Positions 1 to 61,745 of a stretch of 64,000 nucleotides of DNA are shown here, in pieces. Position numbers and translations under genes: made by a program. The number at the start of each line of letters is the position of its first letter. The stretch's first letter is position 1. The stretch lies in contig NC_092676.1 in NCBI RefSeq assembly GCF_964355755.1, positions 20,726,871 through 20,790,870 on the forward strand, written 5' to 3'. The DNA is from Antedon mediterranea. Taxonomy: Eukaryota > Animalia > Echinodermata. Below the pieces are notes generated by a model, which saw only the letters and a list, made by a program, of their open reading frames with translations, did no database searches and was not told the DNA's origin.

Positions 1-733
1 CACTTCAACTTGTGAAGGTGCGTCCAAAGAAACAAAATACAGTATAACAATAAAAAAGAGAAATAGCAATAATTATAATTGGTAAAATATTTAGATTTTA
101 ATCCGCGTTTTCCTCTCCATTGTTTAATAACCAATTAATACTAATAATAGGCTGAACATGTGGGACGCTGGTTTGGATCATTTGGAGCTAAGACTATTCG
201 TGAAAGAAATAAAATCGCGTCTGTACATTCATACACGTTTACATTTTTTTTTTTAATCTATGATACTGACAACAATTATATATTTTTATTTTAAAGAAGT
301 TAAAAACATTGTCGTAACATTGATGTTGTTATAAACTCAATAATCATAACTAAACATCTCCATCTATTATACAATACAAACCATACAGTGCAATACAAAA
401 TTAGTATAATTAGTTTTAATGTGTTATTGACCTTCATTGTTATCATGACTCATCTATTAAGCGATTCAACGAATAATGTGCACAAAATAGGACAACATTT
501 TGTATGCCTAATTTTATAATGATATTAAAATATAGGATATATTTTTTTACAAATAACGCTTTAATTTATTAACATTGATAATTATGGTACTATACGCCTG
601 TTGAAGAAGTAAAAAGTGAGTGAAAAAATATAAACTGGTCACATTTCTATACACTGACTTAGTGACTAAGTTAAATACTAAGCGGAAAACATCTAAGTAA
701 AACGATATCTAAACACTACAGCAACTAACACCA

Positions 734-2077
734 TTAATCTGAGTTTGCATGTTTTAGTGCATTCAAAATGTCGATTCGATAATCTCGTTTCCAACTTTCT
801 GCTGAGATGTTGCATATGTGTACAATGCATTCTATGCATTTTCCTTCGATTGATAGCTTTACGTCAAAACGTGTCGCAAAAGCATATCTATCCCCATTTG
901 TTTTCATGCGATAGTCCCAACCGTTACCGAGAAGAAAGTCTAATTGTCCAAAACTTTCTGGCGAATATTCTTCACGAAAGCAGTTACTGGCATTAAGACC
1001 AAATAACTTGGTATCTATGCCCTGTTCGTATAATATACTAAACCGCACTTGCCTTTTTTTGCTTGATAAACCGCGCTGTATCTGTTGGCGTATACACCTT
1101 CTTAATGTAGCTTTTCGCTCTTCATAAGTTGCCTTTGAAATATTAATAAGAGAATTGACTCGTTCTTCGGCTGCTTGAAGTGTGGCACGACGGCGTTCAG
1201 CCCACCTTCCGTTAATTTTTAGCTTAACAGGCTTGGGATTTGTTAGGACTTCGGTAAAGGATCCTACCATCAATAGGTTATATGTTCCCAATTTTCGAAG
1301 TTTGTAACCACGTCCCTCAACAATTCCGTCGTTATTATTGATATGTAACGATGTTAAAAAATGATAAATATCGTCGTCATCGGTTGGTAGAAATGATCCA
1401 ATTGAAACTAGTTCATCTTCTAAAACACATTGTGTAATTTCCTCGCTTTCTTTCGTAGTTCTTTGATGTGACAAATTTGCATTTTCCAACGTTGCTAGAT
1501 GTCGACTATGCTTATTTTTCATGGGTTTTCGTTTACTCTTTTTGTGTTTAGAGCTAGACACTTTTTGTGTTGATGATTGAACATCTTCTAGATTCGGATT
1601 AATATCTTCTTGGTATTTGTAACAACTTAGGACATCACAGTACCCAATAACGATGTGTTTGGTTTCATCACTAAAATCGTAAGATATTTCTAATATTTTA
1701 CGAAAGGGATCGTTGATAAGGACATTGCCCTCTTGTTGTTTCGATTCTAGGTTAAAATTGATTGTATCTCCTTCGACCAAATTCTCATGCTTTACCGTAC
1801 ATCTCATTGGCGCACTCAAGTCATGGACCTTTCTCTTCCGATTTCGCTTACCCAGTTTTTCCATCGGCGTTGTTTTTCGAATGTAATTTGGTAACAGAAA
1901 TGTGTCATGTTTTGACTGCCATCCTTGATAGTGAACACCAAAATGATTACCATCAGGTAATATGTTTATTCCAGTGATAGTTGCGGCTCTCCAAACACCA
2001 CATTCTTCATCCAATACCTCTACATTTTGACCTATGTAAAACTGTGCCATAGAATTCATGCCGCTCTCTTCTTCCAT
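734..2077 (-). CDS. Tudor/chromo-barrel domain protein (447 aa, single coding exon), likely transposon cargo
   Basis: N-terminus FYIGQNVEVLD...WRAATI...FGVHYQGWQSKHDTFL matches the Tudor-knot/chromo-barrel pattern (VHYxGW as in MRG15/PHF20). It is followed by basic NLS-like tracts and a C-terminal domain I cannot name (LDFLLGNGWDYR). Confidence 0.75.
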   Translation of the reverse strand: MEEESGMNSMAQFYIGQNVEVLDEECGVWRAATITGINILPDGNHFGVHYQGWQSKHDTFLLPNYIRKTTPMEKLGKRNRKRKVHDLSAPMRCTVKHENLVEGDTINFNLESKQQEGNVLINDPFRKILEISYDFSDETKHIVIGYCDVLSCYKYQEDINPNLEDVQSSTQKVSSSKHKKSKRKPMKNKHSRHLATLENANLSHQRTTKESEEITQCVLEDELVSIGSFLPTDDDDIYHFLTSLHINNNDGIVEGRGYKLRKLGTYNLLMVGSFTEVLTNPKPVKLKINGRWAERRRATLQAAEERVNSLINISKATYEERKATLRRCIRQQIQRGLSSKKRQVRFSILYEQGIDTKLFGLNASNCFREEYSPESFGQLDFLLGNGWDYRMKTNGDRYAFATRFDVKLSIEGKCIECIVHICNISAESWKRDYRIDILNALKHANSD

Positions 2078-2375
2078 TGTTTAGGTTCCTGTAAATAACA
2101 ATACAGAATAATAATGTTTGGGCAGGAGGATACTTTATAAAAACCCGCATTTATAACACCGTCCAATCAGAAAGCTTCCTGTCTACGGTAATGCGGTTAC
2201 CAAACAATGAGCTTATCACCTGATTAGGCCTACCTGACCGTGATGTAATCAAATGTGGCAATCCCAAGCGTTATAATGTATTTATTTAATATAAATTTAC
2301 AGTAATCAATGTAAGCCTACTAATCGACTTATGAAGAAAGCCGGGTAACGCAAAACTCACAAGATAGGAATATGT

Positions 2376-5300
2376 TTACACCTCGTTAACATTACGCCGA
2401 GCACGTTCGTTCCACACTCTTTGTTGGTCTTCTGGGCAATCTTTCCATAGTTGGCTAAGGGCTCTGTTTCTCTCAATAAAGTTTAGTTCTTGCTGATGAC
2501 GCATTACCTAATATTTAAATAAATTATAATTAATTATAATACCATATTGAAATACCTCTTAAATGTAAGTTGACAGTAACAATTAACGATTACAATAATT
2601 ATATAATAAAAAGCAGTACGCGTATTCAAGGAAGAAATATATTTCTGTATGTTATTAAATTCATAATATTTGTATAGCCTCATACCTAAGGCCATTTTAT
2701 GATTTTTTTTATTGAGTTTCCATTTTAAGTGCAATGAAATCGGTTCAGGAAAGAGTAAACATTGCATTTTTTTCCCCTGATCGGTTATAAACATAGAACT
2801 ACTTGTATTAATAATCATGTTATACCTCCGGAATGTTTTCTTGAACGAATAAGTTATATCCCGACAACCTTCTTTTTTTCACAGGGTTTGGTTTTCTATG
2901 TTTCCTTTTTATTTGGACATTTTGACAAATTTCTTGCATCGGTTGTCTTTGTTGACGTTCTTTTTTCTTTAACATTGTATATGCGCTGGCATCTTTGCTG
3001 TTAAACATAATAACATGATAATCAATTGGTTAAACATAATTATACTGTACGTGGAAAAGTTATCAGCCCGGGAATGTTGTTTAAAAAATGACAACCGACT
3101 CAGTATGCGTTTTGAAAATGTGTGTGTGTGTTATTCGAACCGTATGTTAACTTTTTAGAAAGGATAGAAAATTCAGATTTCAAGATCTGATTCATTCTGC
3201 TCTTAGATGGGTCGTTCCATTATTAAACAGAGGGTAAGAAATCTGAAATACGTTTAGGCCTACTTTAAAATATAGCACTATACCAGGGAAGAGTACGTGT
3301 AATTTCGATATTCTCTGATCTAATTATTTTTATGCTAAAGATAATATTTCTATTAATTAATTTCTTAGCTAATGTAGTAAATTTAATAATTAAATAAAAA
3401 CATTATTCAAATTATGCAAAAACCACCTTGTAATGCATACACTATTTAGGTTGTATTATTTCATAGAGATATTATAGTGAACTATAATATCTCTATGATT
3501 ATATATACTATTTAAGATATATACACTCTGATTAATAATGGAATGATCTATTGGAATGGATAGGTAAAAACCTTAATGAGAAAAAAACACCACTAACCTG
3601 TTATATTGTATAATGCTGCTGTCGGGTACTACCGACTGAATTGTTGTCAAAGGTGCATTCTGAAGTCTGGAAATATTCAATTTATAGTCTTCTAATGACG
3701 TAAAAGTACCCTTTTCAAGATTGTCCAAGATTCCATCACTTAAAATGTCCACACCTCTTCTAAAACATTCGGCCAATGTCGAGGCAACTTTTTTGGGCTC
3801 TCTGTCACATTCTGCTTGTGTTGTTATAACAATAAAATATGTAAGAGGAACATTATCTTTTGGGAGTCCCCTCCACCAATAGCTTCCACCATATTTACTG
3901 ATGATTTCTTTGATGATTTCGTGTTGTTTATACAAGCGTCCCACTATGATGATTGACATGCCTTCCAGAGCATTCGATGTATCTTGAACATTTTGAAGGG
4001 CTGCATTAGATTCATCGTAAATCCCTTGGTCAAGTTCATTGGTGGCATCCGTGTTGTGATCATTGTCCGGTTCGTTTAGTTCGGACTCATTTAGGTCATG
4101 TTCACCCGGATGGTCAGGATTCTCATCTCGATCGTCATACCCTTCAAGAGACATTCTGTTTTGCACGTACGTATTAAAGCGCTCCTGTGCGTCTACTGGA
4201 CACTCACGCATTCGGTGGTGGATCATCTGCCATTGCCATTCAAATATTTTCAGAATTGGATCTTGTTTGGATGATCCACCACCGCGAGTTGTATGTTGAT
4301 AGAACCTACACATGTCCATATAGTGAGAACGTTCCCCCTGTTCTGTAGACAGCCTCATAACGGAGTGAAATGGGTAACTTTGTAGCAACTGAGGGACAAC
4401 ATCGATGAACTTCATTTCATAACCTGTGAATACATTTCCATACTTGAAAAGGATCAAACGATGGAATTTATCGGCATGATTAGTGTATTTAGAAATTTGT
4501 TCATGTCCATGGCCCCACGAATAATCATCCACCGATACACTACCATTCTCTCGTCCTGGGAGAATAATTACAGACTCGTCTCTTAGCATCCTGTACATGT
4601 GAGCAAGATGGTGAAAAATTAGTTGTTGCAGAAGTTTTACACTTATAGATCTGGAAGGCAGATTTAGAATACGCTGAAGATCTACGGGAAGTAATCGCGA
4701 ATGAGGTGTGTCTGGTAAAACATTATCGAATATGTCCGGGAAAGGAACGACATCATATGAAAAAAAGTCAGTAATTGCCGGGTATACAATTAACTGTGCT
4801 GACGGTTTGTTTAAGGTGATCTGTTTAAGTTGGTCATCTTCAAACACTATGTGGAATCCCCCGTCTTTATTTCGGTGAACACCGCGAGCCTTTATATTGT
4901 TGACCAAATGTTGCAGTCGGACTTTGCGTAGAGCAACTCCATTAACTCCCGGAATTAACGACGTGATTCTAAATGGTAGAAATTGTGTTCGTAAAAAGAT
5001 GTATATAAAACACGCTTACTAAAAAAAGTATATCAACATAAATATCAAACACATTTTACACAGCTTTATCTCAGTTTTAAACATTAATTAATTCAATAAT
5101 AATATTGCAAATATTTGCGCGCAGTAGCGTCTCGTTTAAATTAACGCTTGCTTCTTGACGTGACGAATATGGACGCTAAAGCGTTACCGTATTTGTTGTC
5201 TACAATTGTTCAGATTAATTTACAAAATATTTCTAAATTTCTAGTGAAAATGGATGAAAATGTATACTATATTTTGAAGGTACTTACGTATGAATGTCTT

Positions 5301-7626
5301 GTATAACAAGTCGCAACTGGTGTTCAACAATTCGTGTTATACCATGGTCTATACAAATACCAAAGTGTTCAAGTGGCACATCTAACAGTCGATGTGGATG
5401 TACCCTCCCTACTCTTTTTCTTACATCTGATCTTAGTCCACTCTCCTCATCATAAAGCTTATTTTCCTCCTTGATTGTTTCAATATAAATATTGAATCCA
5501 TCGGCGGTTAGTGGTCCTATCTTACCTCCAAGCACAGCATCTTGAAATTTGGCATCCGACGATATAAATATTTTGTGTCCGTGCTCTTGCATGTGACAAA
5601 TCCAATCGTTTATATAATTATTTTTGTCATATCTTAAATTAGATTCGAGATTGGCCCTGTCGTCCCCAAAATAGAAAATTGCCACTCTCCAAAAATCTTT
5701 AGGGCTATGAAATCCTTTACCTTTTAGAGCCTGAACATTATTAATGTTCGTAAGGCCAAACACCGTTGATTGTCGCCTTCCCATTATACGAGCATCGCCA
5801 TATAATCGCCACCACTCTTCACCATCTACATAATGGTACACATACATTAATGCATCATGTAAAGAGTGAGGATCAATAAATATGCCACCAGGTAGAGAAG
5901 TGGGCTTCATGATCCGCTCGAATTCCGCTTTATACTTTTTCTTGAGCACACGCACTTTGTTATTTGCGGCAAATAATCCAGGTAGTCGCTTTCGGAGCCA
6001 CGTTAATGCCTCGACGACATTAGTTGTGTCCTCCAAAAATAGTAAATCGTGTTCATTTATTTGGAGTTGTTTAATTTCATCTCTACAATAGAAATTTAAA
6101 AAGTGAAAGCTCAGTAAGTTATAAATCTGCATCCAGGCACAGGATGGATTAAATGAATGGTTCAATTGTTAACGATGTTTTTAATCAATACGGTATTACT
6201 AAATAGACTACTTGTTGTAATTATACAAAATGTCTTACTTTACAATTTCATCAAAAAGAGATTGTGTGGCATGTTTGGATGATTTGCCCTTTCTAAGGAT
6301 TGTTACTAAATCTTCGGCAGAGAGTATTCCGTCCCATTCTTCATCTGTAGAAGCATTAGAGATGTCCCTATAGACATAAATAAACAGAATTCAATAAATC
6401 ACATTATTGGTCTAAAGTTCGCTTTTCCATTCCTGTCAGATTGTAAAATTTAACTTTAAAAATATCAAAAGAAAAAAATTGCCATTTTCATTTCAAACAA
6501 GTGAACGTCACGTGAGGATTCTATATATCTTAATAATGTGGTGTCATGCCCATGATAGTAATGAATTCTGTAATTATTGTTTTTCAATTTATAAATATTA
6601 AAATACTTACCAAGCTAGTGCATCTAATAGATCTGATTTATCCCCGCCGTGGATATTCGTTGCAATTTTCAATATTTCTTTTCTCTGATCTATATTTCTG
6701 CGGGAAATTCTATGGCCCAACTGTCTAGTTTTGTTTTCTTGTGGTCCATCACCGTTGCCAATTTCATTGTTGTACTGCCTAATCAGGTTGCTTGTTGATT
6801 TTAGTTTATTTTGTACGCGCTCATCTTGTATCATATCTGCGATAGGCATGGGATTGTTGACAACAGATGCGGTGCACTTTTCTATAATAAAGTCACGCAA
6901 TGTGTACAAATTTAACGTATATTCGTCAATATCATCGATGTACGTCTGCAACATAGCTTCCGTATCTCGAAGATGTCCACCACTTAAAATGAGAACGGTG
7001 AAGTACGAAACGCTAAGGTGGGTGCGTTGGCTTTTGTTTTGTGGTAGACTTTCATTGCGCACAACCAATCCGTTTTGATAAATATAATAATCGTACCGTT
7101 TCCATCCTCGATGTTTCTGTCCATTAAACATTCCTAAGAACTTCATAGCATCAGCTACAGCAACATAATAACTCCCTTCTCTTTCACACCCAGGTATATT
7201 ACATGGCCATCCCAGTTGCTCTGTTCCTCTGTACATATTGTTTGGATTATCTGACAGTCAACCCGAAAAAAGAAAGAAAATAAACTTACATTTTACCAGC
7301 TAATTACACTAACAATAACAATTAGGCTATATATTCTCTTTACTATGAAGAAAGTTACAGTACAGAACCCGAACAGTTCTGTAGGAAAATATTGAATTAG
7401 TTAATTAAACTCATACTATAAGGCCTAACAGAGTACTTGACATTAATCTGTAGTTCAGTAACATTAGTATAATAGGCCTAATAGATTTCACAGTAAATTA
7501 CTGACATCTCAGCATTATGTAAATTTAGCATATTGTTAACAGTGTAGGCCTATCTAAATTAGATAAAACGTATATAGTACAGTCTATCATAACTGTATTA
7601 AAATACAATTAAACTTACTTTGGCAT
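2376..7626 (-). CDS. Multi-exon RAG1/Transib-like DDE transposase with C-terminal BRCT-like and HMG-box domains (~1088 aa)
   Basis: GT-AG exons with compatible phases: 7626-7619, 7378-7359 (these two tentative), 7250-6611, 6367-6239, 6082-5288, 4968-3598, 2997-2826, 2507-2376; total 3267 nt, open. Motifs YGDAR, SSDAKFQDAVLG, CIDHGITRIVE, TGYEMKFIDVVP and STEQGERSH occur in RAG1-core order. LEGMSIIIVGRL...IISKYGG is BRCT-like. RRLSGYNLFVQE...LSQLWKDCPEDQQRVWNERA is an HMG box. Confidence 0.72.
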
Positions 7627-8340
7627 CTTTGTCTTGAATTAAATATAATGGTTGAGAAGTATTATAACGCGGCTTTCACAGACTTTCACTGGAAAGGACT
7701 GAAGAGAAGAGAATGTTCGCGCCAAAATTTGCAGGAGTGGTGTGAAGGTTATCTCAATGTACTGTACAGTACATTAGTCTTCGCCTTAGGGAGTTGTTTG
7801 CCTTGATTTTAAACACTTTTCAATATGTAATATACCCCCCTTTCTACATAGGCTTTTTATTTACTTAATTCATATACATAAAATACTAAGGCCAATGTAT
7901 TACATTTTGCTTGTAGTTTTTAACGACTATATAAGACGTCGATCTTCACAAATTCTCCCGGGCCTGATACCTCTTTACCTCCAGACGTGTATCTCACTTA
8001 TACGCCTTTGGTTTTTGTTTTGTTTATATTAAATTGTACCTTATTTCTTATGTTTGGTAGCCTTTTGAGTTTCGCCGCTCTTAATTATAAATTTTCTTTT
8101 TCACAAACTCTGTACATAGAAAAGAAAAGAGAAATAAATGTTCTGAAATTAAATGAATAAATGAACCAAAACAACCAACCAACCAACCGCCTCTCACCCC
8201 CTTTCCACCCTCCCACCCAAAGACCTCGCATTCGGGAGATTTTGATTTCGATACTTGAGTAAAAATACCGGTTATTTATATATTATATATTTATATTATT
8301 ATATATCCCATTACCCTAGAAACCACAACCCCTCTAACTA

Positions 8341-8735
8341 TTTGAAAAAAAGTGTGCTATCCATTTTAAAAAGTGTGCTATCCATTTGAAATAGCGTGCT
8401 ATCCATTTGAAGAAAGTGTGCTATCCATTTGAAATAGTGTGCTATCCATTTTAAAAAGTGTGCTATCCATTTGAAATAGCGTGCTATCCATTTGAAGAAA
8501 GTGTGCTATCCATTTGAAATAGCGTGCTATCCATTTGAAGAAAGTGTGCTATCCATTTGAAAAAGTGTGCTATCCATTTGAAATAGCGTGCTATCCATTT
8601 GAAATAGCGTGCTATCCATTTGAAAAAAGTGTGCTATCCATTTGAAATAGCGTGCTATCCATTTGAAAAAAGTGTGCTATCCATTTGAAGAAAGTGTGCT
8701 ATCCATTTGAAGAAAGTGTGCTATCCATTTGAAAA
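8341..8735. repeat. Tandem array of ~18 copies of a 21-22 bp unit (TTTGAAaaAGTGTGCTATCCA / TTTGAAATAGCGTGCTATCCA)
   Basis: Directly visible; invariant GTGCTATCCATTT core, with about three unit variants alternating. Confidence 0.97.
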
Positions 8736-9411
8736 ATTAAATTGATTAAATAATCACTGTATATAATTAAGTTTTCCAAGTTGCTTCTTAAATGTAATTT
8801 ATCTCAAATAGTAGGCTGCATGTTGATGAAGACGATACTGATAAAAAGCTCTTCTCTTCTCATTTTAATAGTTCTTTTGAAACAATGGCACGAAACTATA
8901 GTTTTTAAAGTGATTTATTTGATTTGATTTATTTCGAAATATCCATAAATATATAAATATACAATACAATTTGATAAAACAAGAGACGGCAAGTACCAAA
9001 TAATCTTACATAGGCCTATAGACAAAAGAAATGGATTTAACAAGGATAACACACAAAAAAAAAATTAATTAAACTTTTGAATGTTAATTGTGATGGTAAT
9101 TAATGAGTATTTATAAAGAAGTTTTTTGAAAGAAGAGTACCGGAAATAGTAAAATTACCTAATCAGTACTGATACAGAACATCCTTTGTATTAATTAGGG
9201 CTACGTCCCAGGGATCCCGAAATTAATAAGATAGACAATACAAACAACTGAATAAGAAAATAAACCGATTTTACGCATGACCGGATAATTGCGGTCTGTT
9301 TTTGATCTAAAGAAGTCGTTCATAACACGGTAAATGAATGTTAATTCCAATCAGGCCGCATTTTAACATGGATTGCATTGGTGCATTGTAGCTTAATCTA
9401 AGAACATCAAC

Positions 9412-10974
9412 ATGAATGTCTCCGATGGTAGTATACATGCAGAAATTTTAAAGAATTTTGTACCTGGAAAAAAGTTTGATAAAGTTCCAGTATCTGTTGT
9501 GAAAGATTTTCTGAGTCAAAAATACCCACATATTACTACAAATCAGAAACGCGGACGTCTTTTTAAACAGGCTTTTGCTAAAGTAGGCCATTCAATTCGA
9601 CGAATGAGACCTGGATCGAGGAAAGGAAGAAGTGAAACATGTTATTATTATGTTCGTAAGCAAGTCGTCATAACCGAAGATAATGATAACGTTGAGGATG
9701 AGCGACAATCTGCTGTAATGGAAACAGATGAGAAACAGGCAAAGGAAATAAATGAAAAAAGAAAAGCAGAATATCTGAAGCTTAGACTAAACCAAGAACA
9801 GGAGATGCGATGCCAAGCTATACAGGAATTGACCAAAATAAAACCAAATTCCTATATTCACATTCCACGAATAGACAGTCGTCATTTAGTTGATTTGAAG
9901 AAAACAATTGGGAATGGGTCTTTTGGATGTGTGCAGCTTTATCGGTATCGTAAAGATAATGTAGCTGTAAAAACATTTAAAAATTATGAAGGCCTCAGTG
10001 ATCACAAGCTTAGAGAGGCAATATTTCGAGAAGCAAATATGATGCTTTCGTTTATTCCTCATCCCAACATTGTCAAATTTTTAGGATATATTGTGTCTCA
10101 TTCAGCCAAGAACATATCATTAGTGACGTTGTTTGTTGACGGGAAAACACTAAGTTCACTTACTAAGACGGCAAGGAATCATCCTGAAAAACGCGGTAAG
10201 AACTGGTATTAATTTAATTTTTGTGGCTTTTATTTGATTTTCTTTACTATTATATGAAAACAATGCAAGTATAAATAACCTGATTTTTAATATTTTATTT
10301 TAATATAATTTAGGTCTACCCTGGACAGCAATGATGAAGCATGTAGCGGAGGGCTTGATTGCCCTTCACGAACAAAATATCATTCATAACGACCTAAAAG
10401 AAAACAACATTGTAATTAGAGAAGCAGACTACCGTGCAGTAATTATAGATTTAGGTATACCGTTTTAGGTTTGTGTTGTTTTAAATGATATAAATATTGT
10501 GTGCCTCTATACTACAGTAGGCTTATATCATGTTTTTAACAAAATATTGATAATAATGTCGTGGCAAATTTTCGACAAAAAGCCAATGAATGATGGGCGG
10601 GGGACGGGATGGCGACACAATTCAACCACTGACCAGATAATACTCGAATATTCTTTTTTTTGACAGGCAAATCGACATTCGCAGATAAACCTAAATGGAA
10701 TAAATACAGTTTAGGGTCTAAGCAATCTATTGAGGAATATAAGAAGAAATATCCGTGGATAGCGCCTGAATTAATTGAGGACAAGGTTCTCCCGTCTTCA
10801 TTTACCGATTGTTATTCCTTTGGTTTTGTCTGCAAATCGGTATATATACACACGCATTCCAATGACATTATACTTCAACAAATATGGGAAGCCACATATA
10901 GATTAATTAATGATCGTTATGATTTGTCCAGTATAATGCAATATTTTAATTCTGTTACCATCAACAATTGTTAA
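9412..10974 (+). CDS. Protein kinase (~410 aa, 3 exons) with RFX-like winged-helix N-terminus and coiled-coil linker
   Basis: Exons 9412-10195, 10314-10454 and 10667-10974 join in frame. Kinase motifs: IGNGSFGCV, VAVK, HPNIVKFLG, HNDLKENN, IDLG, WIAPE, DCYSFG. N-terminal GRLFKQAF...RRMRPGSRKGRSETCYYYVRK resembles the RFX GKLIRxVF...RRLGTRGxSKYHYYGIR segment. Confidence 0.85.
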
Positions 10975-12372
10975 CAGATAATGCATCTTTTTTGGGTGTA
11001 GGCTGTAACATGGATTAAATTCTTTAATCCATGGCTGTAATGAGCTAGCCTCAAGGTCTGTGTAAATTCTTCAAGTCAAAGGTCGCACACTGTCTTAACA
11101 TTATTTGTATTTAATTATTTCTCCATTCATTTATGAAACATTAAACCATTACTGTAAAGTTTATAAATAAAGATTTTTTTTATTTTTTGCTGTGGGAGAG
11201 TTGGTGTCTGAGAGAGACCAAATAAACTAAAAAATTGCCGTCCTCATTTTTTCGGAGCTTGTTTTATATTAACAATAAATGAACATGAACAAATATAGAA
11301 TCTTAATGGCTTTTTTTTTTTGGTTTGTTTTATATTTTATATCATATCAAACTTGTATCAGTGGACCCTCATGTGATTGTAGGCCTAAATCGATTGTGTA
11401 GACATACAAATAGCAGTATCTGAGCATGCGTAAATAATAATGTTCTTAATACCAGGGAGTTGTTATTAGTACAGTACTCGTCGTCCAAACCATTAATGAT
11501 AATAGCTACTTTGTAATAATAATTGATTGGTTTATCAGCAAAAAAGCATGAACCATGGAGGAAAAAATCAAGATCAAACGATGCCAGTGCACCTAAAAGT
11601 GACTCCAGTCAATTGCGAACATAGGCCAAGTTAATCACGGCGATGCCGGGGGTTTCCGCTATTTCTATGAAGTAGCCTAAACCTAGGCCTAAGCCTGCAT
11701 CTATCATCTTTATAAACTCCATTATTATTATTATTATTTGAAGAATTACATGCCTTGACCAGGGAATTATAAAATGTATAGGTCCATGTTTTGACGACAC
11801 ACAAAGTAGCACATTACAGTAAGATAATAATGACGTAAATACTATTAAGTAACTTTCTTGGCCGTCATTGGATAATTTTAGGAAGTACGTCCTACTCACT
11901 CAGTCACTGCTCTATTTACAAATGAAGGGTTCTAATTGGTCAGCTAACAGCACACTGCTTGAGGCAGTTTAAATTCTCCTTGAAACCGTCCATAAAACAC
12001 GCCATTACTCATACATCTGTCGTACCGCTAATGACCGAAAACCTCACTTTTTGGGGTTTTCAAACGTAACGCTATCCGGGGCTCCTGCGCCTAATGAATT
12101 TATTGTACCCGATTAAACCATATAAATTAAAGAAAAGACCATTTCAACGAGAAAACCATTCTCTGTCTGAAATTCATACATAGGTTTTTGTTAATTTTAA
12201 ATCTTATTTCCTTTTTTATAAAGAAAACTACAAAATGACATATTCAAAGTTTGATTGTATGCATCTTTAATTTTCATATTTTGGGATCTTTAAATTAACT
12301 ATAATTTAAAATGTTCAAATGTACCAAAGTACATGAACTTATATGCATTTTTTATTTGTAACTTAAACATAC

Positions 12373-13159
12373 CTTCTTTTTTGTATTTTAGTAACACTAG
12401 TTGGAATCCTGAGAGGAGCTAACAATGCAGTTGGTGACCCTGGGCTTGTTTCTTGGTTGGCTGTGTTCAGTGGATTTGCTTTGTATTGACTCTGTACATA
12501 GCTTGTTGCTACAGATAGCATCCCCAAAATGGCCGCAAGGACACAAACAAATATTATTGCACCAAATAACTCTAAAAATAGATACATCAAGAATAAGTAT
12601 TTTTGACATACATTACAACAAAACATCATTGAAACCATGGAGAGGTATAAAATATGTTGAAACCAAGCTTCCTGTATGTACATGGCTTGTTGCTACAGAA
12701 CATCCCCAAAAAGTCTGTTGTATTGTGTCACATTGTGATGTCATTATTGTTGCATGCTCTACAACTTCCTGGTAAGTAAATACAGTATGTAACTTTCTAT
12801 TGAGCCTAAGATTCTCAGTGCAATTCAGTATCGGAGAGAATATTATACAAATAATGAATGAGTTGAATGGGAAGAATATATAATGAGTTGAAATATTGAC
12901 TGTTATACTTTCAATGAATGGACATGTTCTAAATTAAACTTTTATTCAACTAACCCGCTGTTTTTTGGTACACGGAAAAAAATACTACGACCATTTAATA
13001 GTGCATATTATTGCATGCCATGTAACCCACAATCGTCAAATCAAATTACAGGAATTATTTAGGTGTTATATAATATATTTTACCTCCTGCTGTTTCTATC
13101 ATCCAACTCTTAAATAAGAATTGACCAACATCTGCTGAGAAGTAGAATGACATGTGCAT
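12373..13159 (-). CDS. Copper transporter, SLC31/CTR family (5' coding exons only)
   Basis: Exon 13159-13084 (MHMSFYFSADVGQFLFKSWMIETAG, typical CTR MxMxFYF...LF..W) splices in phase to exon 12571-12373 (ELFGAIIFVCVLAAILGMLSV..., TM1). No MxxxM/TM2-3 exon was found in the window. A probable upstream exon ends at the donor near 15427. Confidence 0.8.
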
Positions 13160-13189
13160 CTAAAAAAAAGAAAGAAAGTTAATAGTAAA

Positions 13190-13800
13190 AGACCCCTTCC
13201 CTGCAATTTTGGACGTTTTTTGGAAAATAATTAAACATTAAACCATGTCATTCCTTGTCTTAAATGTACGTTTTGTGGTAAATTATGATAAAAAGTGAGA
13301 AACAATGCACTACCTAAGTAGCTCGCGGCGATCGACCTCTCGTGGAGGGTCTTAGGCCTAGCCTAGCTAGGCTTAGTTTTGTAGGCCTAGCTGGTAAACA
13401 TCGGTAACGTACGAACATCGTACGCTACCTATATACCTAGCCTGACGTTGTATAGTTGCTGCATTAATTGTATTTCTATTTTTGCCAGACTCCGTTGATA
13501 CAAATTGGGGAAAACCCGGTATTTTCGCTGAAAAGTTAGGAGTCTTCCATTTGTTTTGGCCTCACGATCGATCGAAAAGTGGGCGAATTACAGGTGAAAA
13601 ACAAAAATATCAATCCGCGCGCAATGCATTTTGGGATTTATAGCGGGCCGCTATAATTATTAGAATCGACTTATTTTTCACATTTTTAACCGTTTAAAGA
13701 CGAAAAAAGTTATCGCAATAGGACCATATAGTATTATTTTTACATTAAATATAGTTTGTGATCTTAAAATTAGATCTAAAAAACGTAGGGAATGGGGCTT
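13190..13800. mobile_element. Non-autonomous DNA transposon (Kolobok-like, ~610 bp), copy 1
   Basis: Imperfect TIRs AGACCCCTTCCCTGCAATTTT / AAAACGTAGGGAATGGGGCT, flanked by TAAA/TTAA; near-identical to 14475-15100 in reverse orientation. Confidence 0.85.
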
Positions 13801-14474
13801 TAACTTACTGTACTCCATTCATGTTTCCGTACAATTACTGTACACTATATTTTGCATTTAATACCCACTTTTAACGTCAATCCTAACCATCAATTCACAA
13901 ATTTTGTGGTTGATGGTACAGTAAGTGACATGAAACAAACAAAAATTAACTTCATGTGGATATACAGAACCTTGGTAGAACATTTAAAGACAAGTATTAA
14001 TATAGGAGTAACAAAAATACTGTACTAAGCTTGAAACCTGCTTAATTGTAATGATATTGAATACAGTAATTAGATTACATTTATAATGAGTTCTGCACCA
14101 CGATGGTTTATTTTTGCTGGTAGTGGTACTACAAAAACAACTCAATAGCCACGTCTTATTTTAGAATTAGATCTACAGGTCAAATATTGTATATAGTTTT
14201 GATTTTCAAATTTATTATAAAAAATGGTACTATAAGACATACTGAAAGGAAACATTAAAACCCATTTTCTGTAACTGTTTTTTCATTGTAGGGAAATCAT
14301 TTTCTGAAATAAAATTAATCAATCAATAATAATATATTAATAATGATTATATAAAGGCAGATGAAACAAATAGCAACATTGGTTCTCTCATTACAAAAGT
14401 AACAACTTTACACTCACCATTTTTTGGTGGTGGTTCCTAAAAAGAAACTTTTGTAAAATTTTCTATTTATTTAA

Positions 14475-15100
14475 AGCCCCATTCCCTACGTTTTTTAGAT
14501 CTAATTTAAGATCACAAACTATATTTAATGTAAAAATAATACTATATGGTCCTATTGCGATAACTTTTTTCGTCTTTAAACGGTTAAAAATGTGAAAAAT
14601 AAATCGATTTTAATAATTATAGCGGCCCGCTATAAATCCCAAAATGCATTGCGCGCGGATTGATATTTTTGTTTTTCACCTGTAATTCGCCCACTTTTCG
14701 ATCGATCGTGAAGCCAAAACAAATGGAAGACTCCTAACTTTTCAGCGAAAATACCGGGTGTTCCCCAATTTGTATCAACGGAGTCTGGCAAAAATAGAAA
14801 GACAATTAATGCAGCAACTATACAACGTCAGGCTAGGTATATAGCTAGCGTACGATGTTCGTACGTTACCGTTGTTTACCAGCTAGGCCTACAAAACTAA
14901 GCCTAGCTAGGCTAGGCCTGAGACCGTCCGCGAGAGTTCGATCGCCGCGAGCTACTTAGGTAGTGCATTGTTTCTCACTTTTTATCATAATTTACCATAA
15001 AACGTACATTTAAGACAAGGAATGACATGGTTTAATGTTTTTAAAGTGATATATATGTATTATTTTCCAAAAAACGTCCAAAATTGCAGGGAAGGGGTCT
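14475..15100. mobile_element. Non-autonomous DNA transposon (Kolobok-like), copy 2, inverted relative to copy 1
   Basis: TTAA-AGCCCCATTCCCTACG...TGCAGGGAAGGGGTCT-TTAA; AG termini with TTAA target. Confidence 0.88.
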
Positions 15101-15544
15101 TTAACAAATTTAAATAGGCCAATAATATATTTAATTATCAAATGACACAGTTCCGTCGATGCACAGCATTGTAGAAGCATATTCTTTGTCCCGGCTATGT
15201 TGTCCAGAGTTGCGTAACGGTAACAGTCAATTGTAATCTTGGACCGGGCCCCTGTCTGCTTCTCTCTGGAAATGGGGGTACCTGGCCTAGATAGAGATAG
15301 GCCTAGGCCTAACTTCTAGGCCTAGGATCAGTTTTTTTAAACCGAAATTAGAACACAAGTATCAAACCAACCTAGTTGAAAACTACTGAAATTAAACTAT
15401 GTCATATAATCTAAATAAAGAACTCACGATTACAACATAGAATCCTTACGATTGCAATAAAATTAGATGTAAAACTGGGTCTACCCAGCAGCAACAAAAA
15501 CGCTGTTGTTGTTTTCTTCTGATCTTCAGCATGTGATGTTAAAT

Positions 15545-16126: not shown

Positions 16127-18425
16127 TGGTCGAAGCGGCCGCCAACCAAAGCGGCCGCCAGTTTAATATCGTCATTTGTATGGAACGCCATGTGCGCTTT
16201 AATCTTTGATTGCCGTTGTCAACGCCATGGCCTATGGCGAGTTGAGTTACAGCTAAATAAATATAAGCCAACTCATGTACTATCAAATCTTTATATTTCT
16301 ATAATAATTAAGTTTGCCTGCCGATAAATCAATGTATATTTTATTTGTATTTACTATTAACTAATACATATATCGAAATATATTTTGCCGAACCTTTATA
16401 TCTCGTTTACATACTATTGAATCCTTATACAGTATTGCAATAATAATTTACGTATACGATATTGCCGAATCTTTATATCTCGTTTATATACTATTGAATC
16501 CTTATACAGTATTGCAATAATAATAATTTACGTACGGTATTGCCGAATCTTTATATCTCATTTACATACTATCGATTTTTATACAGTATTGCAATAATAA
16601 TTTACGTACGGTATTGCCGAATATTTATATCTCATTTGCATTTAACTATCGAATTTTATACAGTATTGCAATAATAATTTACGTACGGTATTGCCGAATA
16701 TTTAAATCTCATTTACATTTAACTATCGAATTTTATACAGTATGGCAATAATAATTTACGTACGGTATTGCCGAACCTTTATATCTCATTTACATACTAT
16801 CGAATTTTATACAGTATTGCATTAATAATTTACGTACGGTATTGCCGAATCTTTATATCTCGTTTACATACTATCGAATCTTTATACAGTATTGCAATAA
16901 TAATTTACGTACGGTATTGCCGAATATTTATATCTCGTTTATATACTATCGAATCTTTATACAGTATTGCATTAATAATTTACGTATACGGTATTGCCAA
17001 ATCTTTATATCTCGTTTACATACTATTGGATCTTTATACAGTATTGCAATAATAATTTACGTACGGTATTGCCGAATCTTTATATCTCATTTTTACATAC
17101 TATTGAATCTTTATACAATATTGCATTAATAATTTACGTACGGTATTGCCGAATCTTGATATCTCATTTGACATACTATCGAATCTTTATACAGTATTGC
17201 ATTAATAATTTACGTACGGTATTGCCGAATCTTTATATCTCGTTTACATACTATTGAATCTTTATACAGTATTGCATTAATAATTTACGTACGGTATTGC
17301 CGAATCTTTATATCTCATTTTTACATACTATCGAATCTTTATACAGTATTGCATTAATAATTTACGTACGGTATTGCCGAATCTTGATATCTCATTTACA
17401 GACTTAATCAAATCTTTATACAGTGTTGCATTAAATAATAACTTACGTACGGTATTGCCGAATATTTATATCTTGTTTACATACTATCGAATCTTTATAC
17501 AGTATTGCATTAATAATTTACGTACGGTATTGCCGAATATTTATATCTTGTTTACATACTATCGAATCTTTATACAGTATTGCAATAATAATTTACGTAC
17601 GGTATTGCCGAATATTTATATCTCATTGACATACTGTACTATCGAATCTTGGTTTTTATTATTAGTAATAGTGTGTGTTATACATTTAAGTGTTATTCCA
17701 TTGTAATACATTGTTTGTGTTTTCAATAAAGCAACATGGGACGCCCACCTAATGTGCAGCAGCACTATTGCTGGCCGTCAGTCGAGTTATTAGCAGAAAT
17801 TCGCGTAATTAATTACTGTATCAAACAGACACTTTCATCTTATTTTAGTATTTAAAACTCATTTTCAATTGATCAATATTTAAATATCTGAAGTAATAAA
17901 ATAGTGTAGGATATTAAATAAATTGCTGTCATCATGTTATTGTATTAAATTATGATTGCGAACACTACTATAGTTACTTTACTAATTAATTAATATACAA
18001 TAACAAATATTTTTAATTATTAATATATTTATATATTTTGATATACTTTATTGATTGGTTTATTTATATATAATTCCTAATAATTGGCTTATTATTATAT
18101 TATATTAATATACAATATAAACACCACAATGTATTTTATAGACTTTATTAAACATATGTATATCATTTAGAACAGTTAAAATAAGTAATCATCGATTCGC
18201 CATTTCGTTTAAAAGAACGTACGCGTATCACATTCAATCTGTAAAAAAAAAGAGAATAAATTACATAATAATGTAGATTGTTATTTACGTCCGAGGTAAA
18301 GAAAACCTGTCGAAACAATGACAATCAAAGATTACAAAACAACGACAATCAAAGCGCACACGGCGTTCCATACAGATTACCGTTATTGAACTAGCGGCCG
18401 CTTTAGTTGGCGGCCGCTTCGACCG
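16127..18425. mobile_element. Non-autonomous TIR element with TA target duplication (Tc1/mariner-pogo-like), ~2.3 kb
   Basis: TA-TGGTCGAAGCGGCCGCCAACCAAAGCGGCCGC... and ...GCGGCCGCTTTAGTTGGCGGCCGCTTCGACCG-TA; imperfect inverted match over ~90 bp. Confidence 0.85.
16380..17650. repeat. Minisatellite with ~79 bp unit, about 16 copies
   Basis: Unit TATTGCCGAATCTTTATATCTCGTTTACATACTATCGAATCTTTATACAGTATTGCATTAATAATTTACGTACGG repeated; explains the repetitive ORFs here. Confidence 0.96.
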
Positions 18426-18670
18426 TAATCCATGTAAGCCTGTATATATAATAAATTTAAGAGTGTGAATGAACATAATTATTATAATATTAATAGCAAT
18501 CTGCAAGTTTATAAACTTTTTTTGATTACAGGTAAAGTGCAATGAAGTTGATACCCGAAATGCTGACATCTAATTAATTTAACAACAATTTCGAGAGTTG
18601 GTGTGTCGCCAACACAAAATTCAAGAGGTCATAATTATTTTAACATACATGGTAGTCTGTTGAAATAAGT

Positions 18671-28714
<10,044 letters not shown>

Positions 28715-38973: not shown

Positions 38974-39438
38974 CAAGCTTTATATCAACATTTGATTTCG
39001 CCATGCAAACCTTCAAACAATATATTATGTAAAACCGTAACGAAAGTCTATATTAAATAAATAACCATGACATTACAAAACAATTCCACGGAGTATAACG
39101 TATGTACTTAAAGCATTGTTGACTTCCTTATCCAATTCAATTTTGGAGAAAATTCCTGAAATACTATATTCCTTATAGAAGTGTGATTGTATATAGTCAA
39201 CATCGACAGATGTGTGTGACGAAAATGTAAAGAGATCCTTATCGGAAAGTTTAATAACGCCTGAGGTTGAACATTGAAAAACATATGCGATATTATTGTG
39301 TGTGAGGAAAATTAAAAGCCATCTTTATCGGAAAAAACACATAGATATTATTGCATATAATATAATTATGTTGTTATTTTTTGTGTTACACACCAAGGCC
39401 CACTTATAATTTTTTTTAAATGTTTACACCCCACCCAC

Positions 39439-42400
39439 TCAAACAATTCTACATCTATCTGAAACTAAACGAATGGTTCGACTTTTATTTAATGCTGTTA
39501 AAAGTTCGTATTCGGCTGGCATGTGGTGATTGGTGGTATAATTCAGTGTCCTGTTGTCGTAGTAATGATGTTTTAACGGTTTGCCACTCGGAGATTTATA
39601 AAATGGATAAAAACCATATAACGAAACATATTGACACATTGACCCAGCTGCTGTATACATGATTAACCCCAGAGATGGGTTTCTTATTTTCCAAAATCTG
39701 AAAGAAAAGTCATTTGTTGTAGGCTATGAAGAAAATTATATTTATGCATGCATAATTTAATGTGCTGATGATGTCAATTTATTCCTGTTATCTTTAATTA
39801 TGTTCATTTTCAGTATGCATTATTATTATTATTTTACTCGTTGAACATTCTTGTAAGAAACGTTAAATCCCCAGCTCAAATCCACTGTCTTACAAAAACG
39901 GAAGTTAATGAAAGAATAGTAAGATTAAGATGATACTTACTTTGTAACTAGTGGTAGCATACCTCGGTACGAATATACAATTCTAACTGTTAAATTATTC
40001 TGTTTGATACCTGCTACAAGATTATGTGCGTAGCTTATATTCTTTTCTGCGTTCAATTTAGAAATCCATATATATGTGTCATTAAGCTCTTTAAACGTGT
40101 CGTATGAAGTTTTGTAGCAACTATTTGAAGTGTTTGTTAGACATATACTGCTTTCGATACTGGCGGCCCCATTGAGCACCATCATATCTATTTTACCACC
40201 AACGTCTTGTTCAAAACCAATAGTTTGTGCAAGATTTCCTCTAAAAACAAAGTCGTGTTCATCTATTTCACGTCCACAATTGCTGTTTAGTAGATTACCA
40301 GCACTGCCTACAACTGCACAGGATCCTTGCAGAGGAATACTGTCGATACCTTCTGGTAATTTTGTCATTCGTTTGTTCTGTTTGAAGCCATCTTTGTAAA
40401 TTAGTGTTAATAGAGACGGTTTAAATCCAGCCTTCTGAAGTCGTTTTCTTTAATAGAATACAAACTTATAAATTCTGGGCTTATAATTGATTTAAAAAAA
40501 CTCTAGACAGGCATGTTCGAATTCAGTATGAGGCATATGTATACTTTTTGTTCTATTTCGTGAGAACAAACCACTTTTATTTCATTCAAACCACCGTAAA
40601 TTTTACATGTAAAATCAGTATTCAAAAAAGTAATATAGCATATGCATACTAAAAACTCTCTAATATTATTATTATGAAAAACAATTAAGGAAGAATTTTA
40701 GCATTTGCCCTTTATATTTTTCAAATTTCCCTAAATTTAGACTTCGAATATGCCATTTTACAGTTTAATAAAGTCATTCCCACTTAAAATAGATGAAATA
40801 AACGGTTAAGTTTAACCAAAACCATAGTGTGACAGACAATTTGAATATTATTCGTTTAGTAATCATAATAATAATATTCTCTCTGAGCCAATATGCTGCT
40901 TTCATTGTATTTGTTTGTGTCATTATTATTAATGAATCCGTATCTTGTAAAAAGTACACCAAGATCATTGTATTATATTATACAACTTATATAGAAATTC
41001 AACAGTTTGTATTTATATACAATAAATGTTTCGTCACCAAATCTGATTTTAATTGGTGTAGAATTCTTTCAAGTCTATCTGAAAGAGTAAAGCTCTGTTT
41101 GGTATTTGCTATTTAAGCAGAGACCATGCATACATTTGTGGTGGCAGAAATTAGATGATCAAAAGAAGGCTGCAATAGGCGGGGTAGAAAAAGAAAATAG
41201 ACATATATAGTCAAGTTCTATTTGATATGATAACTAGGAAGGTATAATGCCACCGTGTATTATGATCAGTGAAATGATTACCGTATCCAGTAAAAACGAA
41301 AGCAAAACTTACCTCATATCTAATGCTTTGCTTTCTTTAATGTGATTAGTCAATACTTTCCTACAAACAAAATCATAGGTTAAAATTATAATGGATACAC
41401 ATAAACTAAATACTCTTTTGATAAGAAGTAATAACTAAGATTATGGTACTTATCGGAAAGTTTCGTTTTGGCAGCTCCCTACCAATTAATTTCATCCGGC
41501 AGTGTGCTAATTTTAAATTTTTTAAACCACGCTAAAGACTTCTTTTCGAAGTGTCTTAATTTACGGTTATTATACATTACATCATACATCTTAATGTTGA
41601 CATTTCCTACTTTTTCCAGCTTGCTTTGTTCGCTTATATAAATGCGACTCTTGTTTATATATATAAAAGTATCTCTTCGGAGATCCCGCCTGCGATTTTT
41701 TTTTTCGTAATTAAGTTGGGAACCCCCTTATGAAACGTCACAAAATAAACATGAATAATTCATCAGTTAAATTTTCTTGTTCCGTGTGCACCCAAGCGTA
41801 TAGCAACAAGAAGTGATTATACACAAGTGCGGTACGATTCTAGGCCTATCTCCGCTGTGGTTGCCGCGTGGGATTTCATAAAAGAATAGCGGCGTTTTGT
41901 CAGGGGCGGATCCAGGATTATTTTTGCGGGGGTGGGGGGGGGGGGGGGGGTGGCACACGCGATCGTAGAGAGAAAATGGGGAAAGCCCAGAAAAAAATGC
42001 ATTTTATGGTGTTCGAGATCACTAACGCACTCTGATTCGATCATCTGTAAAGGGTCTTGCACAACTCTTCACAGTTCCAAACTTCAGGGTGGCGAAAGTA
42101 TTTTTCCCAAAGACTTTCTCTGAAAATCCGAGAGAGGGCGTCATATTTCGTCCCATTGTGTAGGGGGAGCATTATGCATCTCTCTGCGCTCGCCTTTTGA
42201 ATGAACATTTTAATATGCTGCGCTTTCCGAATGAATTGCCGATTCTTACAAAGGGAGGATATCGCCTTGTTGTAGGCCTAACTACAGTACGTATACGCCT
42301 TTTTCACGAAACGGAAGACATCTTCGATCGATGACAAACAATGCCGTGCAACTAAGCGTAACCAACAGAAATAACATAACGTTTTCAGGGGATTTCAGGA

Positions 42401-45400: not shown

Positions 45401-48400
45401 GATGTTCGGCGATATATGCACACGTGTGTACTCACGACGTCGATGTAAACAAACAGCCAACTTACTACTTCCGTCTGAGTGTATTGCATTTTGGGTAATG
45501 ATGACGTTTTGCTCGACGACAACCCATAGATTTAACCGGTTATTTCGGAGCACAAATTGAGCAGAAACGCGGTCTTGTTATTGTTATCTATTTTTAATCT
45601 ATTTAAAAATAACCGGTTAAATTGCGTTATGCAGCAGAAACAGACCCGATCGACGCTTGGACCACAATGAAAATAAGTTGGAATCGTTCACCTTTGTTCC
45701 CGGCCTCAAACCCCTCCCCCGCTCATTGCGCACGCGTCTATTCCTCCTCTACTACTAGGCCTAGTACTAGTACCAGATAGAGAGTACTACTACCCTAGAC
45801 TATTCATATCAGTTATCCGTGGGTCTCTTATTTTATAGCAAAAATATCGCAGTATAGCCTAAATAAAGTATTATTATTACACAGTAATAGGTTAAATGAT
45901 GTTGCACCTTCTTTTTTTTTGGACATGATGAATAGTGTGTGTCACGACGGTGGAGGTAGTCTGGGTTCCAGACGGAGTTTTGTCTTAATATTAGTAAAAA
46001 GATAAATATTTTGGCACATATGGCGTTTCATACGTATACTACTTGATTTTGGATACTCCTAAAGGGGTCGTCAAACACACGGCCAGCATGTGGTTCTTTT
46101 TTGGCCAGCCTGTGGTCCGAGGGCGCTAGACATTTGGCCAGCCTGTGGTCCCGAGGGCACTAGCATGAAAACACACAGCCCGTCTCTGTGATTCTTTTTT
46201 GGCCAGCCTGTGGTTGGGGGGCGATAGACATATCGGCCAGCCTGCGGTCCCAAGGGCGCTAGACATAACTTTTCCATGCTTTTCTAAAGTGAGCCCTCTA
46301 CAGCTGTTTTCATTTTATAAAAACTTCACTGTGCTTTGACAAGAATATGTGTGGTCTTAATGTATTATATTAGATTATTATTTTTTATATTAAATAATGT
46401 TTTTGGACACATTTACGGCCGCCATGTTGTTGGTTCTTCCTCCTGTTGGAATCACTTTTCAGTCTGGAGTACGCCCTCTGGTGTTCTTATTACATCTCTC
46501 TCTGTCTATGGCTCTCTGCTGGCTGACCGAAATGTCTAGCGCCCTCGGGACCACAGGCTGGCCAAATGTCTAGCGCCCTCGGACCACAGGCTGGCCATAA
46601 AAGAACCACAGGCTGGCCGTGTGTTTGACGACCCCTGCTCGGATACTCCGTCTGGGGAAACACGCACAAGTCACGTGGTTTGACACCAAGAATTCTTGGT
46701 GCATACGATTATCCGGTTGACTAGTTTCAGCTGCATGCGATTGGCTACTCACTCGTACGCCGTTTTAATATTCATATTTCAGAAGTTCAAAGACTCGCAT
46801 ATGTTACGCTTAGACAACGTGTACTTGGTACATTGATGAAAGTTTCTGAAGGCTAGAAATGATTTTATATGCCTAGTAGTTCGGTAAACATTTGATGGGA
46901 TTTTTCCCAAGAACATGAAAACTCGTCTTGATAAGATAGGCTGCTTCTCCGCAAATCAAACATTGAATGGATCATTTATTACGCGGAGATAATTTGATTT
47001 AATTCCCACCCAGACCCTGTCCTGTTCTGTGTAGTGTGTGGTGTAGCTTTGTTGTGTGCCGGTGGTATGTAGGCCTACTTTATTGGCGTTTTATTTGGCA
47101 GGTCATACGTGCGAGTTGAGTAGTAGGACCTACGAAAGAGGCCTAGGCCAATGACTAAACAATTAATAAAAAAACAACTTGGCAACACGATTTATCAACA
47201 GTCTCGTCTCGTACATTCAGCACTGTACGTACTCGATCTTTTTCATTTTGAAACAAGATGATCATTGGTTGATTCGAAATCTATATTTACATACCGCCCG
47301 CCCCATATAGCCAAATACGGTATGATCACTACGTCATTCTTATCGGACGTTTGCGGTCTACAAATCGATTTCTATACGCGTTTCACAAGTCTGTATTTTC
47401 AGACAAAAATCGCGGTCGCAATAAAAACAAATAAATAAAAAAGAAAATACAGACTTGGGGCAAGTCTACGGTGGAGGCAGCAAGCAAATCAAACTTGTTA
47501 CGTACACGCATATTAACCGATAGTTCGCACACGCACGCGCTGTTGGATGTATCATTATCTGTACAACAACAGCACGTGTGCTTTGTTTTGTCCAGACAAT
47601 TCCAAATATTAAAAAGTGTCTGTTGAGCTATCGTGTTTCGGTAATAAAACAGACTGATAGAAGAAGTTACCCAGTTTCTAATCTAAAAACTTTTTTTTAA
47701 ACTTTTTTTTTTACTTCTGTTTGATACCTGCTACAAGATTATGTGCGTAGCTTATATTCTTTTCTGCGTTCAATTTAGAAATCCATATATATGTGTCATT
47801 AAGTTCTTTAAACGTTTCGTATGAAGTTTTGTAGCAACTATTTGAAGTGTTTGTTAGAGATATACTGCTTTCGATACTGGCGGCCTCATTGAGCACCATC
47901 ATATCTATTTTACCACCAACGTCTTGTTCAAAACCAATAGTTTGTGCAAGATTTCCTCTAAAAACAAAGTCGTGTTCATCTATTTCACGTCCACAACTGA
48001 TGTTTAGTAGATTACCAGCACTGCCTACAACTGCACAGAATCCTTGCAGAGGAATACTGTCGATACCTTCTGGTAATTTTGTCATTCGTTTTTTCTGTTT
48101 GAAGCCATCTTTGTAAATTAGTGTTAATAGAGACGGTTTGAATCCAGCCTTCTGAAGTCGTTTTCTTTAATAGAATACAAACTTATAAATTCTGGGCTTA
48201 TAATTGATTAAAAGAAACTCTAGACAGGCATGTTCGAATTCAGTATGAGGCATATGCATACTTTTTGTTCTATTTCGTGAGAACAAACCACTTTTATTTC
48301 ATTCAAACCACCGTCAATTTTACATGTAAAATCAGTATTCAAAAAAGTAATATAGCATATGCATACTAAAAACTCTCTAATATTATTGTTATGAAAAACA

Positions 48401-61240: not shown

Positions 61241-61745
61241 AGCACATACAAAAGAAACGGATCTTAAACAACTATAATAGTAAAACCAAACATAGCAAAA
61301 ATTACAAAACTATTCAACGGAGCATACAGGTAAAACATTGTTGACTTTCCTTAAGCAATAAAGAAATTGAATTGAATTGAATTAAGCTCTGCATACACTA
61401 TCAAACTAGTTTGACAAAAAAGGTGTGATGTGCCCATATATGGTAGTGATTTGACATCATCATGTTCATGTATGGGAACATCACATTTTTTGTCACATCA
61501 AGTTTAGAGTGTAGACAAGGCTTTATTCAAGTTAAGAATATAATTATGATTCTATAGTCGAAATCGGCGGATGTGTGTGAAGAACATTGAGAGAGATTCT
61601 TATCGGAAAGTTCAATAGTTTTAAAGTCTAAGGTTGAACATTGAAAAACACATGTGATATTATTGCATATAATGTTGTTGTTATTTGTTGGATTACACAC
61701 AAAGGGTACCACTTATAATTAAAACAATGTTTACACCCAACCCAT

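Follow-up and report, generated by a model that had tools for sequence, protein, structure and literature searches.

A gene for a protein kinase with a predicted winged-helix domain beside a predicted RAG1/Transib-type transposase gene in Antedon mediterranea, a likely case of transposon cargo

The 64,000-nt stretch of Antedon mediterranea DNA that we analyzed, hereafter the window, contains at 9412–10974 (+) a gene for a protein kinase whose N-terminal domain is predicted to have an RFX-type winged-helix fold. The protein belongs to a small, undescribed kinase family in which the fusion of the two domains is real. The gene has a DNA transposon, predicted to be of the CMCT clade, as its neighbour, and it is probably accessory cargo of that transposon. 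The explanation that we consider best as a whole, and fairly likely, is that of an RFX-type winged-helix kinase, likely cargo, which acts on proteins on the DNA that it binds. Given cargo status, the chances of a DNA-tethered regulatory role for the kinase are about even. To our knowledge, kinases with a DNA-binding domain of their own are rare, and we know of no animal cut-and-paste transposon that brings a signalling enzyme with it.

The window is intron-rich animal DNA of about 34% GC, with an Ost-alpha exon and with exons of GT29 sialyltransferases. The latter occur in three tandem copies that are 95–98% alike, at 39400–41500, 47700–49300 and 61700–62800 (-). Exons at 18656–20969 (+) belong to a host kinase that we take to be CDK8/19. 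An intact LINE ORF of 976 aa, coding for an endonuclease-RT, is located at 23364–26294 (+), and a second, frameshifted LINE-like element at 55501–58657 (+). A fold-back element at 13185–15105 has 536-nt arms of 98% identity placed 736 nt apart, and a tandem array of a 77-nt repeat is present at 16378–17705.

The region 9412–10974 is not a single open reading frame. Straight-through translation gives many stops, and the region is instead read as a spliced gene with three exons on the plus strand and a product of 410 aa. The frame is kept open by 12 GT-AG combinations, and we chose the model whose splice sites are best. Exon 1 (9412–10195) would encode the winged-helix domain (aa 1–88), an acidic linker, a predicted helix (aa 103–141) and the kinase N-lobe. 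Intron 1 (10196–10313; 118 nt, phase 1, GTAAGA..AG) is followed by exon 2 (10314–10454), with alphaE, the catalytic loop HNDLKENN and the start of DLG, the glycine codon of which is split by intron 2 (10455–10666; 212 nt, phase 1, GTATAC..polyT-AG). The activation segment, YPWIAPE, DCYSFG, a short C-lobe and the stop codon are in exon 3 (10667–10974). Intron 1 is supported by the homologs P0001, P0002 and P0019, since their matches end exactly at 'KRG', where the intron begins, and it is apparently conserved across homologs that are 47–48% identical. We infer the splicing of the gene from its sequence and from these homologs.

A word search retrieved 2 relatives among 288 candidates, and a word search of proteins of 665–2000 aa retrieved no relatives. 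Searching 1.84 billion representatives with a profile gave six matches, three of them real (P0001, P0014 and P0015) and all unnamed; no named protein with the N-terminal domain was found in this search. The matches P0016–P0018 were dropped as long proteins with either 0 or many tiny matching stretches, P0018 being a tandem-repeat protein. The P0014 sequence comes from a contig of 537 nt and is a fragment of 85 aa. In P0001/P0003/P0004, P0002, P0015 and P0019 (37–49% identical, cluster members included), the N-terminal domain is joined to a kinase N-lobe, and the charged, helical linker between the two differs greatly in length. The domain is common to four more distant, unnamed sequence clusters, three of which continue into a kinase. 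All homologs are unnamed ENA or Logan predictions, and the comparison of their sequences indicates that the fusion is old. The catalytic loop and the C-lobe are known from the window copy only, because the gene callers end the homologs at intron 1. Scans of metagenome, viral and prokaryotic contigs gave no DNA context for any kinase homolog, so that the linkage of kinase and transposase is seen at one locus.

The transposase gene (2376–7236, minus strand) consists of six exons, all with GT-AG boundaries, and has an open frame of 1,074 aa. It starts 2.2 kb from the kinase gene, the two genes standing back to back. The 21-nt minisatellite between these divergent genes, at about 8350–8750, is a possible binding-site array. 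The transposase shares 674 identities with Anneissia japonica XP_033095249, and its putative catalytic residues are D348, D428 and E726. The conserved D, D, CxxH and E of the family are at positions that we take to be those expected of a RAG1/Transib-type transposase. The model of the Anneissia homolog, which has a mean pLDDT of 34, was aligned to BbRAG1L with a Z score of 7.0 (162 residues), to HzTransib with 6.4 and to RAG1 with 5.6–5.7; these were the longest alignments of the model (152–162 residues), with an unrelated helical domain tying at Z 7.0. Foldseek with this model returned nothing at E<=0.001, and no Pfam or PDB profile matched the transposase. The motifs C(2)C and H(3-4)H were not seen by eye in the transposase alignment or in the L001 and L002 ORFs from metagenomes. 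We predict a RAG1/Transib-fold transposase, probably of the CMCT clade.

The C-terminal tail of the transposase is HMG-box-like, with an E-value of 0.05 in the window and of 2e-14 in L001 (352–4105). The L001 transposase also has a weak BRCT match (E 0.002). This region is at most a possible BRCT domain, as the model of pLDDT 34 matched ferredoxin-like chains there. Downstream of the transposase gene lies a single-exon gene of 447 aa (734–2077, minus strand), which is Tudor/Agenet-like; locus L004 holds a homolog that matches over the full length (22%, pairwise E 1e-14). A RAG2-like partner was not found beside the transposase; its partner gene is this Tudor/Agenet-like one.

The host exon at 12371–12572 (minus strand) ends in a clean donor at which the coding frame is still open, and this donor opens an intron that spans 1–12370. 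A spliced joint at the exon was seen in run X5, and the next exon is absent from the window. The transposase, the partner and the kinase are placed in one host intron because the next host exon lies outside the window. In three runs, the depth of a 2,023-nt contig over 10044–12066, which includes most of the kinase stretch, was 0.62, 0.56 and 0.49 times that of the contig 12227–13026, on which the host exon lies; contig depth as such is no copy number. The three runs are from one sample, possibly that of the window itself, and no second allele over 10552–11135 was found in them. The half depth is a hint of an insertion in one haplotype with its right edge between 12066 and 12227. The same sample contains a second copy of the kinase that is about 91% alike and is disrupted by frameshifts and deletions. 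Among the 24 substitutions listed for it, 5 are synonymous, as compared to 21% expected at random. The second copy decays neutrally, as a dead transposon copy would. Run X5 covers only a decayed kinase copy.

Four related loci were found in metagenomes, and two of them (L002 and L004) hold homologs of both the transposase and the Tudor-like protein between inverted repeats. These two are complete elements of 6.7–7.0 kb (L002 1370–8088 and L004 1038–8057). Their repeats start with CATTAC/CATGAC and measure 47 nt at 81% in L002 and 32 nt at 81% in L004. Such termini fit the 5'-CA..TG-3' rule given for CMCT elements in the accessible part of PMC12730594. In L002, AG flanks the element on both sides, a possible 2-bp duplication (n=1); target-site duplications of CMCT elements measure 2–5 bp. 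The transposase and Tudor-like genes are convergent in L002 and L004 and in tandem in the window. No kinase was found in the four loci, the two complete elements included. The flank to the left of the terminal repeat in L004 (1027–1037) resembles the reverse complement of the repeat end, as if it lay beside another end.

No pair of terminal repeats was found in the window, a search of 1–13200 having given AT-rich chance pairs only, and the left end of the element is probably located beyond the window. A high-copy repeat at 11977–12096 (minus strand) is the candidate right end. Its minus strand begins with CATTA at 12096, and both the repeat and this motif fall in the interval of the right edge suggested by the depth; CATTA is not significant alone, being short enough to occur by chance, and has no partner end in the window. 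A hairpin at 11009–11033 was ruled out as an end of the element because the half-depth contig continues to 12066.

Instead of being cargo, the kinase could be a fast-evolving, lineage-restricted host gene, or it could sit on an insertion of its own or on a structural variant of larger size, with the transposon adjacent by chance. We regard this as unlikely. The two complete relatives without a kinase agree with it, as do the ordinary spliceosomal introns, one of them the apparently conserved intron 1, and the fact that the ends of the element were not found in the window. However, a stable host gene would not usually combine a half depth with a neutrally decayed second copy, the kinase is nested with a transposase in an intron of another gene, and the N-terminal domain is present in no named protein among the 1.84 billion representatives. 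Cargo is favoured over a chance neighbour because the adjacency of the transposase, the intronic position, the half depth and the decayed copy occur together. The same four observations support the term 'mobile cargo' used in the earlier note, whereas the two kinase-free elements count against it. For a host orphan gene beside a transposon, the value of the finding would fall to that of a new small kinase family.

The winged-helix domain (9433–9666, plus strand; aa 8–85 as aligned to the RFX1 DNA-binding domain) was analyzed with an AlphaFold model of exon 1, built on a 5-sequence alignment, with a pLDDT of 77–87 over aa 1–60 and of 65–67 over aa 61–80. In a structural search of 48,161 chains, the predicted domain matched the RFX1 DNA-binding domain 1dp7 with a Z score of 9.3 (rmsd 2.0 A, 71/76 residues) and RFX5 8zjr with 9.2. 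These were the top two matches outside the kinases, followed by the phage P4 origin-binding domain with a Z score of 7.5. No match of the domain to the Pfam RFX family was obtained at E<=1, nor at E<=10, and searches of PDB sequences with the domain, that with its profile included, did not recover RFX chains. The sequences matched in these searches were RPL19 (E 0.25) and HP1BP3 (E 0.022). In an Atlas feature search, the domain was matched to Pox_D5 (49% of the members of one cluster) and DUF3874 at 0.91–0.92, with the unrelated EutC higher at 0.93, and the neighbours also included phage clusters. Thus, the RFX-like N-terminus previously proposed for aa ~10–84 is upheld by the predicted fold but not by the sequence: the domain is RFX-like in its modelled fold only, and by sequence it is not a member of the RFX family.

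The region aa 1–88 is basic, with 19 K+R as compared to 5 D+E. The invariant residues of the domain, RG-LF--A and R-PGSR--YYY, are concentrated in helix 3 and in the wing of the model, and the winged helix is the best conserved part of the protein (51–57% in three homologs). In RFX1, the wing reads the major groove and the DNA is bound as a dimer, according to the available text of PMC4333399. By analogy to RFX1, the domain of the kinase may bind DNA. At the place of the coiled coil in the earlier note, a helix is predicted for aa 103–141, with a pLDDT of about 50–70.

The motifs of a protein kinase could be read in order on the inferred spliced product, as had been claimed: GNGSFG (167–172), VAVK (184–187), the alphaC glutamate E207, HNDLKENN (286–293), DLG (307–309), APE (341–343) and the subdomain IX Asp356. 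The spliced sequence likewise confirmed a non-RD kinase with DLG for DFG. Each exon matched Pfam Pkinase, with E-values of 2e-11, 1.3e-8 and 0.036, and the match stops at profile position 193 of 263. The catalytic motifs are all kept, but the description of the kinase as intact does not extend to the C-lobe, which is short with 55 aa after Asp356. Classification gave weak matches of <=31 bits that differed by exon and were spread over several groups (TK/TKL-like), exon 2 matching GCN2, ASK1 and RAF. No close relative was found among named proteins or solved kinases, in agreement with the earlier view that no standard family can be assigned.

Under the cargo reading, the kinase gene would lie inside the element and move with it. 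The long helix would dimerise the protein, and two wings would read a paired site in the manner of the RFX1 dimer. With the basic wing bound to DNA, the kinase could phosphorylate Ser/Thr of proteins on that DNA. Non-RD kinases work without phosphorylation of the activation loop, and this non-RD kinase may be active in the same manner. Hypothetical targets are the nucleoprotein complex of the element itself, or host chromatin or silencing factors at the element, and the outcome might be that transposition is tuned or that the element is shielded from silencing.

A cargo gene with a weak or dead kinase is also conceivable, in which the domain is a scaffold and the protein mainly regulates by binding DNA, for instance by repressing or activating the promoter of the divergent transposase gene; we consider this quite unlikely. 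The non-RD loop, the DLG, an activation segment of 34 residues and the short C-lobe are features expected under this reading, as are the greater conservation of the winged helix and the poor match of exon 3 to solved structures, the best being a weak stretch of JAK1 (E 0.16). In contrast, the catalytic residues K187, E207, D288, K290, N293 and D307 are all present in the window copy, and those homologs that extend far enough retain the Gly loop, the lysine of AVK and the glutamate of alphaC. An origin of the kinase gene in an endogenous DNA virus or Polinton-like element, suggested by the winged-helix type shared with D5/P4 primase-helicases (Pox_D5 and phage clusters as Atlas neighbours, P4 origin-binding domain at Z 7.5), is very improbable, given that the long ORFs in the window include none for a capsid, polymerase, helicase or packaging protein, that IMG/VR has no relative of kinase or transposase and the phage tblastn was empty, and that the genes bear introns and the relatives are 7-kb elements with terminal inverted repeats.

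If the kinase is cargo, as we favour, the locus would be a compact and testable case of an element that regulates itself or host chromatin through targeted phosphorylation, and the protein would be naturally suited as the scaffold of a site-directed kinase. The set of partners of RAG1-fold transposases would also be widened beyond RAG2. A more far-reaching possibility, which we think doubtful, is an undescribed and still mobile RAG1-fold branch in marine invertebrates that has a full set of chromatin tools: an HMG-box transposase, a reader of the Tudor-like kind, and a kinase that is targeted to the DNA of the element and marks the transposase or host chromatin. RAG requires host HMGB1; if this possibility were true, the HMG box in the transposase would do the DNA-bending job that HMGB1 does for RAG, and the phosphorylation marks would switch transposition or block silencing.

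Compared with known systems, the N-terminal domain resembles the RFX factors RFX1 (1dp7) and RFX5 (8zjr) in its predicted fold (Z 9.2–9.3, rmsd 2.0–2.6 A), and it shares with winged helices of the RFX/P4/D5 type a strongly basic wing, here with invariant Arg residues and a YYY strand. RFX proteins have C-terminal domains of their own after the DNA-binding domain. The protein described here differs from them in having a kinase in that place and in its identity of 16–18%. The N-lobe has sequence and fold matches to TK/TKL-like Hanks kinases (JAK2, CSK, CTR1, RAF, ASK1 and RIPK2), whereas HND for HRD, DLG for DFG and the short C-lobe set it apart, and the DLKxxN loop is of the Ser/Thr type.

The transposase is similar to CMCT and Transib transposases in the predicted RAG1/Transib-like fold of its helical insertion and in the spacing of its putative D-D-E residues, and its relatives share the CA..TG termini and, in L002 and L004, the convergent layout of two genes. 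It is dissimilar in that C(2)C and H(3-4)H were not seen and in carrying an HMG box and, in L001, a weak match to BRCT. The Tudor-like partner distinguishes the element from RAGL/ProtoRAG, where the partner is RAG2, and the possible 2-bp duplication in L002 distinguishes it from Transib, with 5 bp. Apart from the two missing motifs, the features of the transposase, the partner and the termini fit the CMCT clade as presented in the accessible part of PMC12730594. In the available portions of the RAG/Transib literature (PMC9435367, PMC4411706, 10.1101/2021.09.26.461848 and PMC12062965), neither the element nor the fusion is described. In our literature searches, with Repbase Reports and subscription journals outside their coverage, no publication came up that deals with this element or with a kinase bearing an RFX winged helix.

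The DNA-binding fusion was not found in these searches, and kinase cargo as such has precedents in IS3EU and KRMA. Fungal IS3EU transposons carry alpha-kinase genes opposite in orientation to the transposase, as stated in the accessible part of PMC12730594, and are thus likewise DNA transposons with a kinase gene oriented opposite the transposase gene. They differ in that the alpha-kinase is not of the Hanks fold, the transposase is of another superfamily and the hosts are fungi, and a DNA-binding fusion is not mentioned in that part of the text. The KRMA kinases of nematode Mavericks, of which 121/532 are still next to a Maverick, have a ubiquitin-like N-terminal domain, a CtkA/HipA-like kinase and a virus-like carrier, unlike the kinase described here. 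As far as the available text of 10.1101/2022.07.12.499685 describes them, they resemble it in that their genes contain introns, encode an accessory domain at the N-terminus and are kinase cargo of an animal mobile element.
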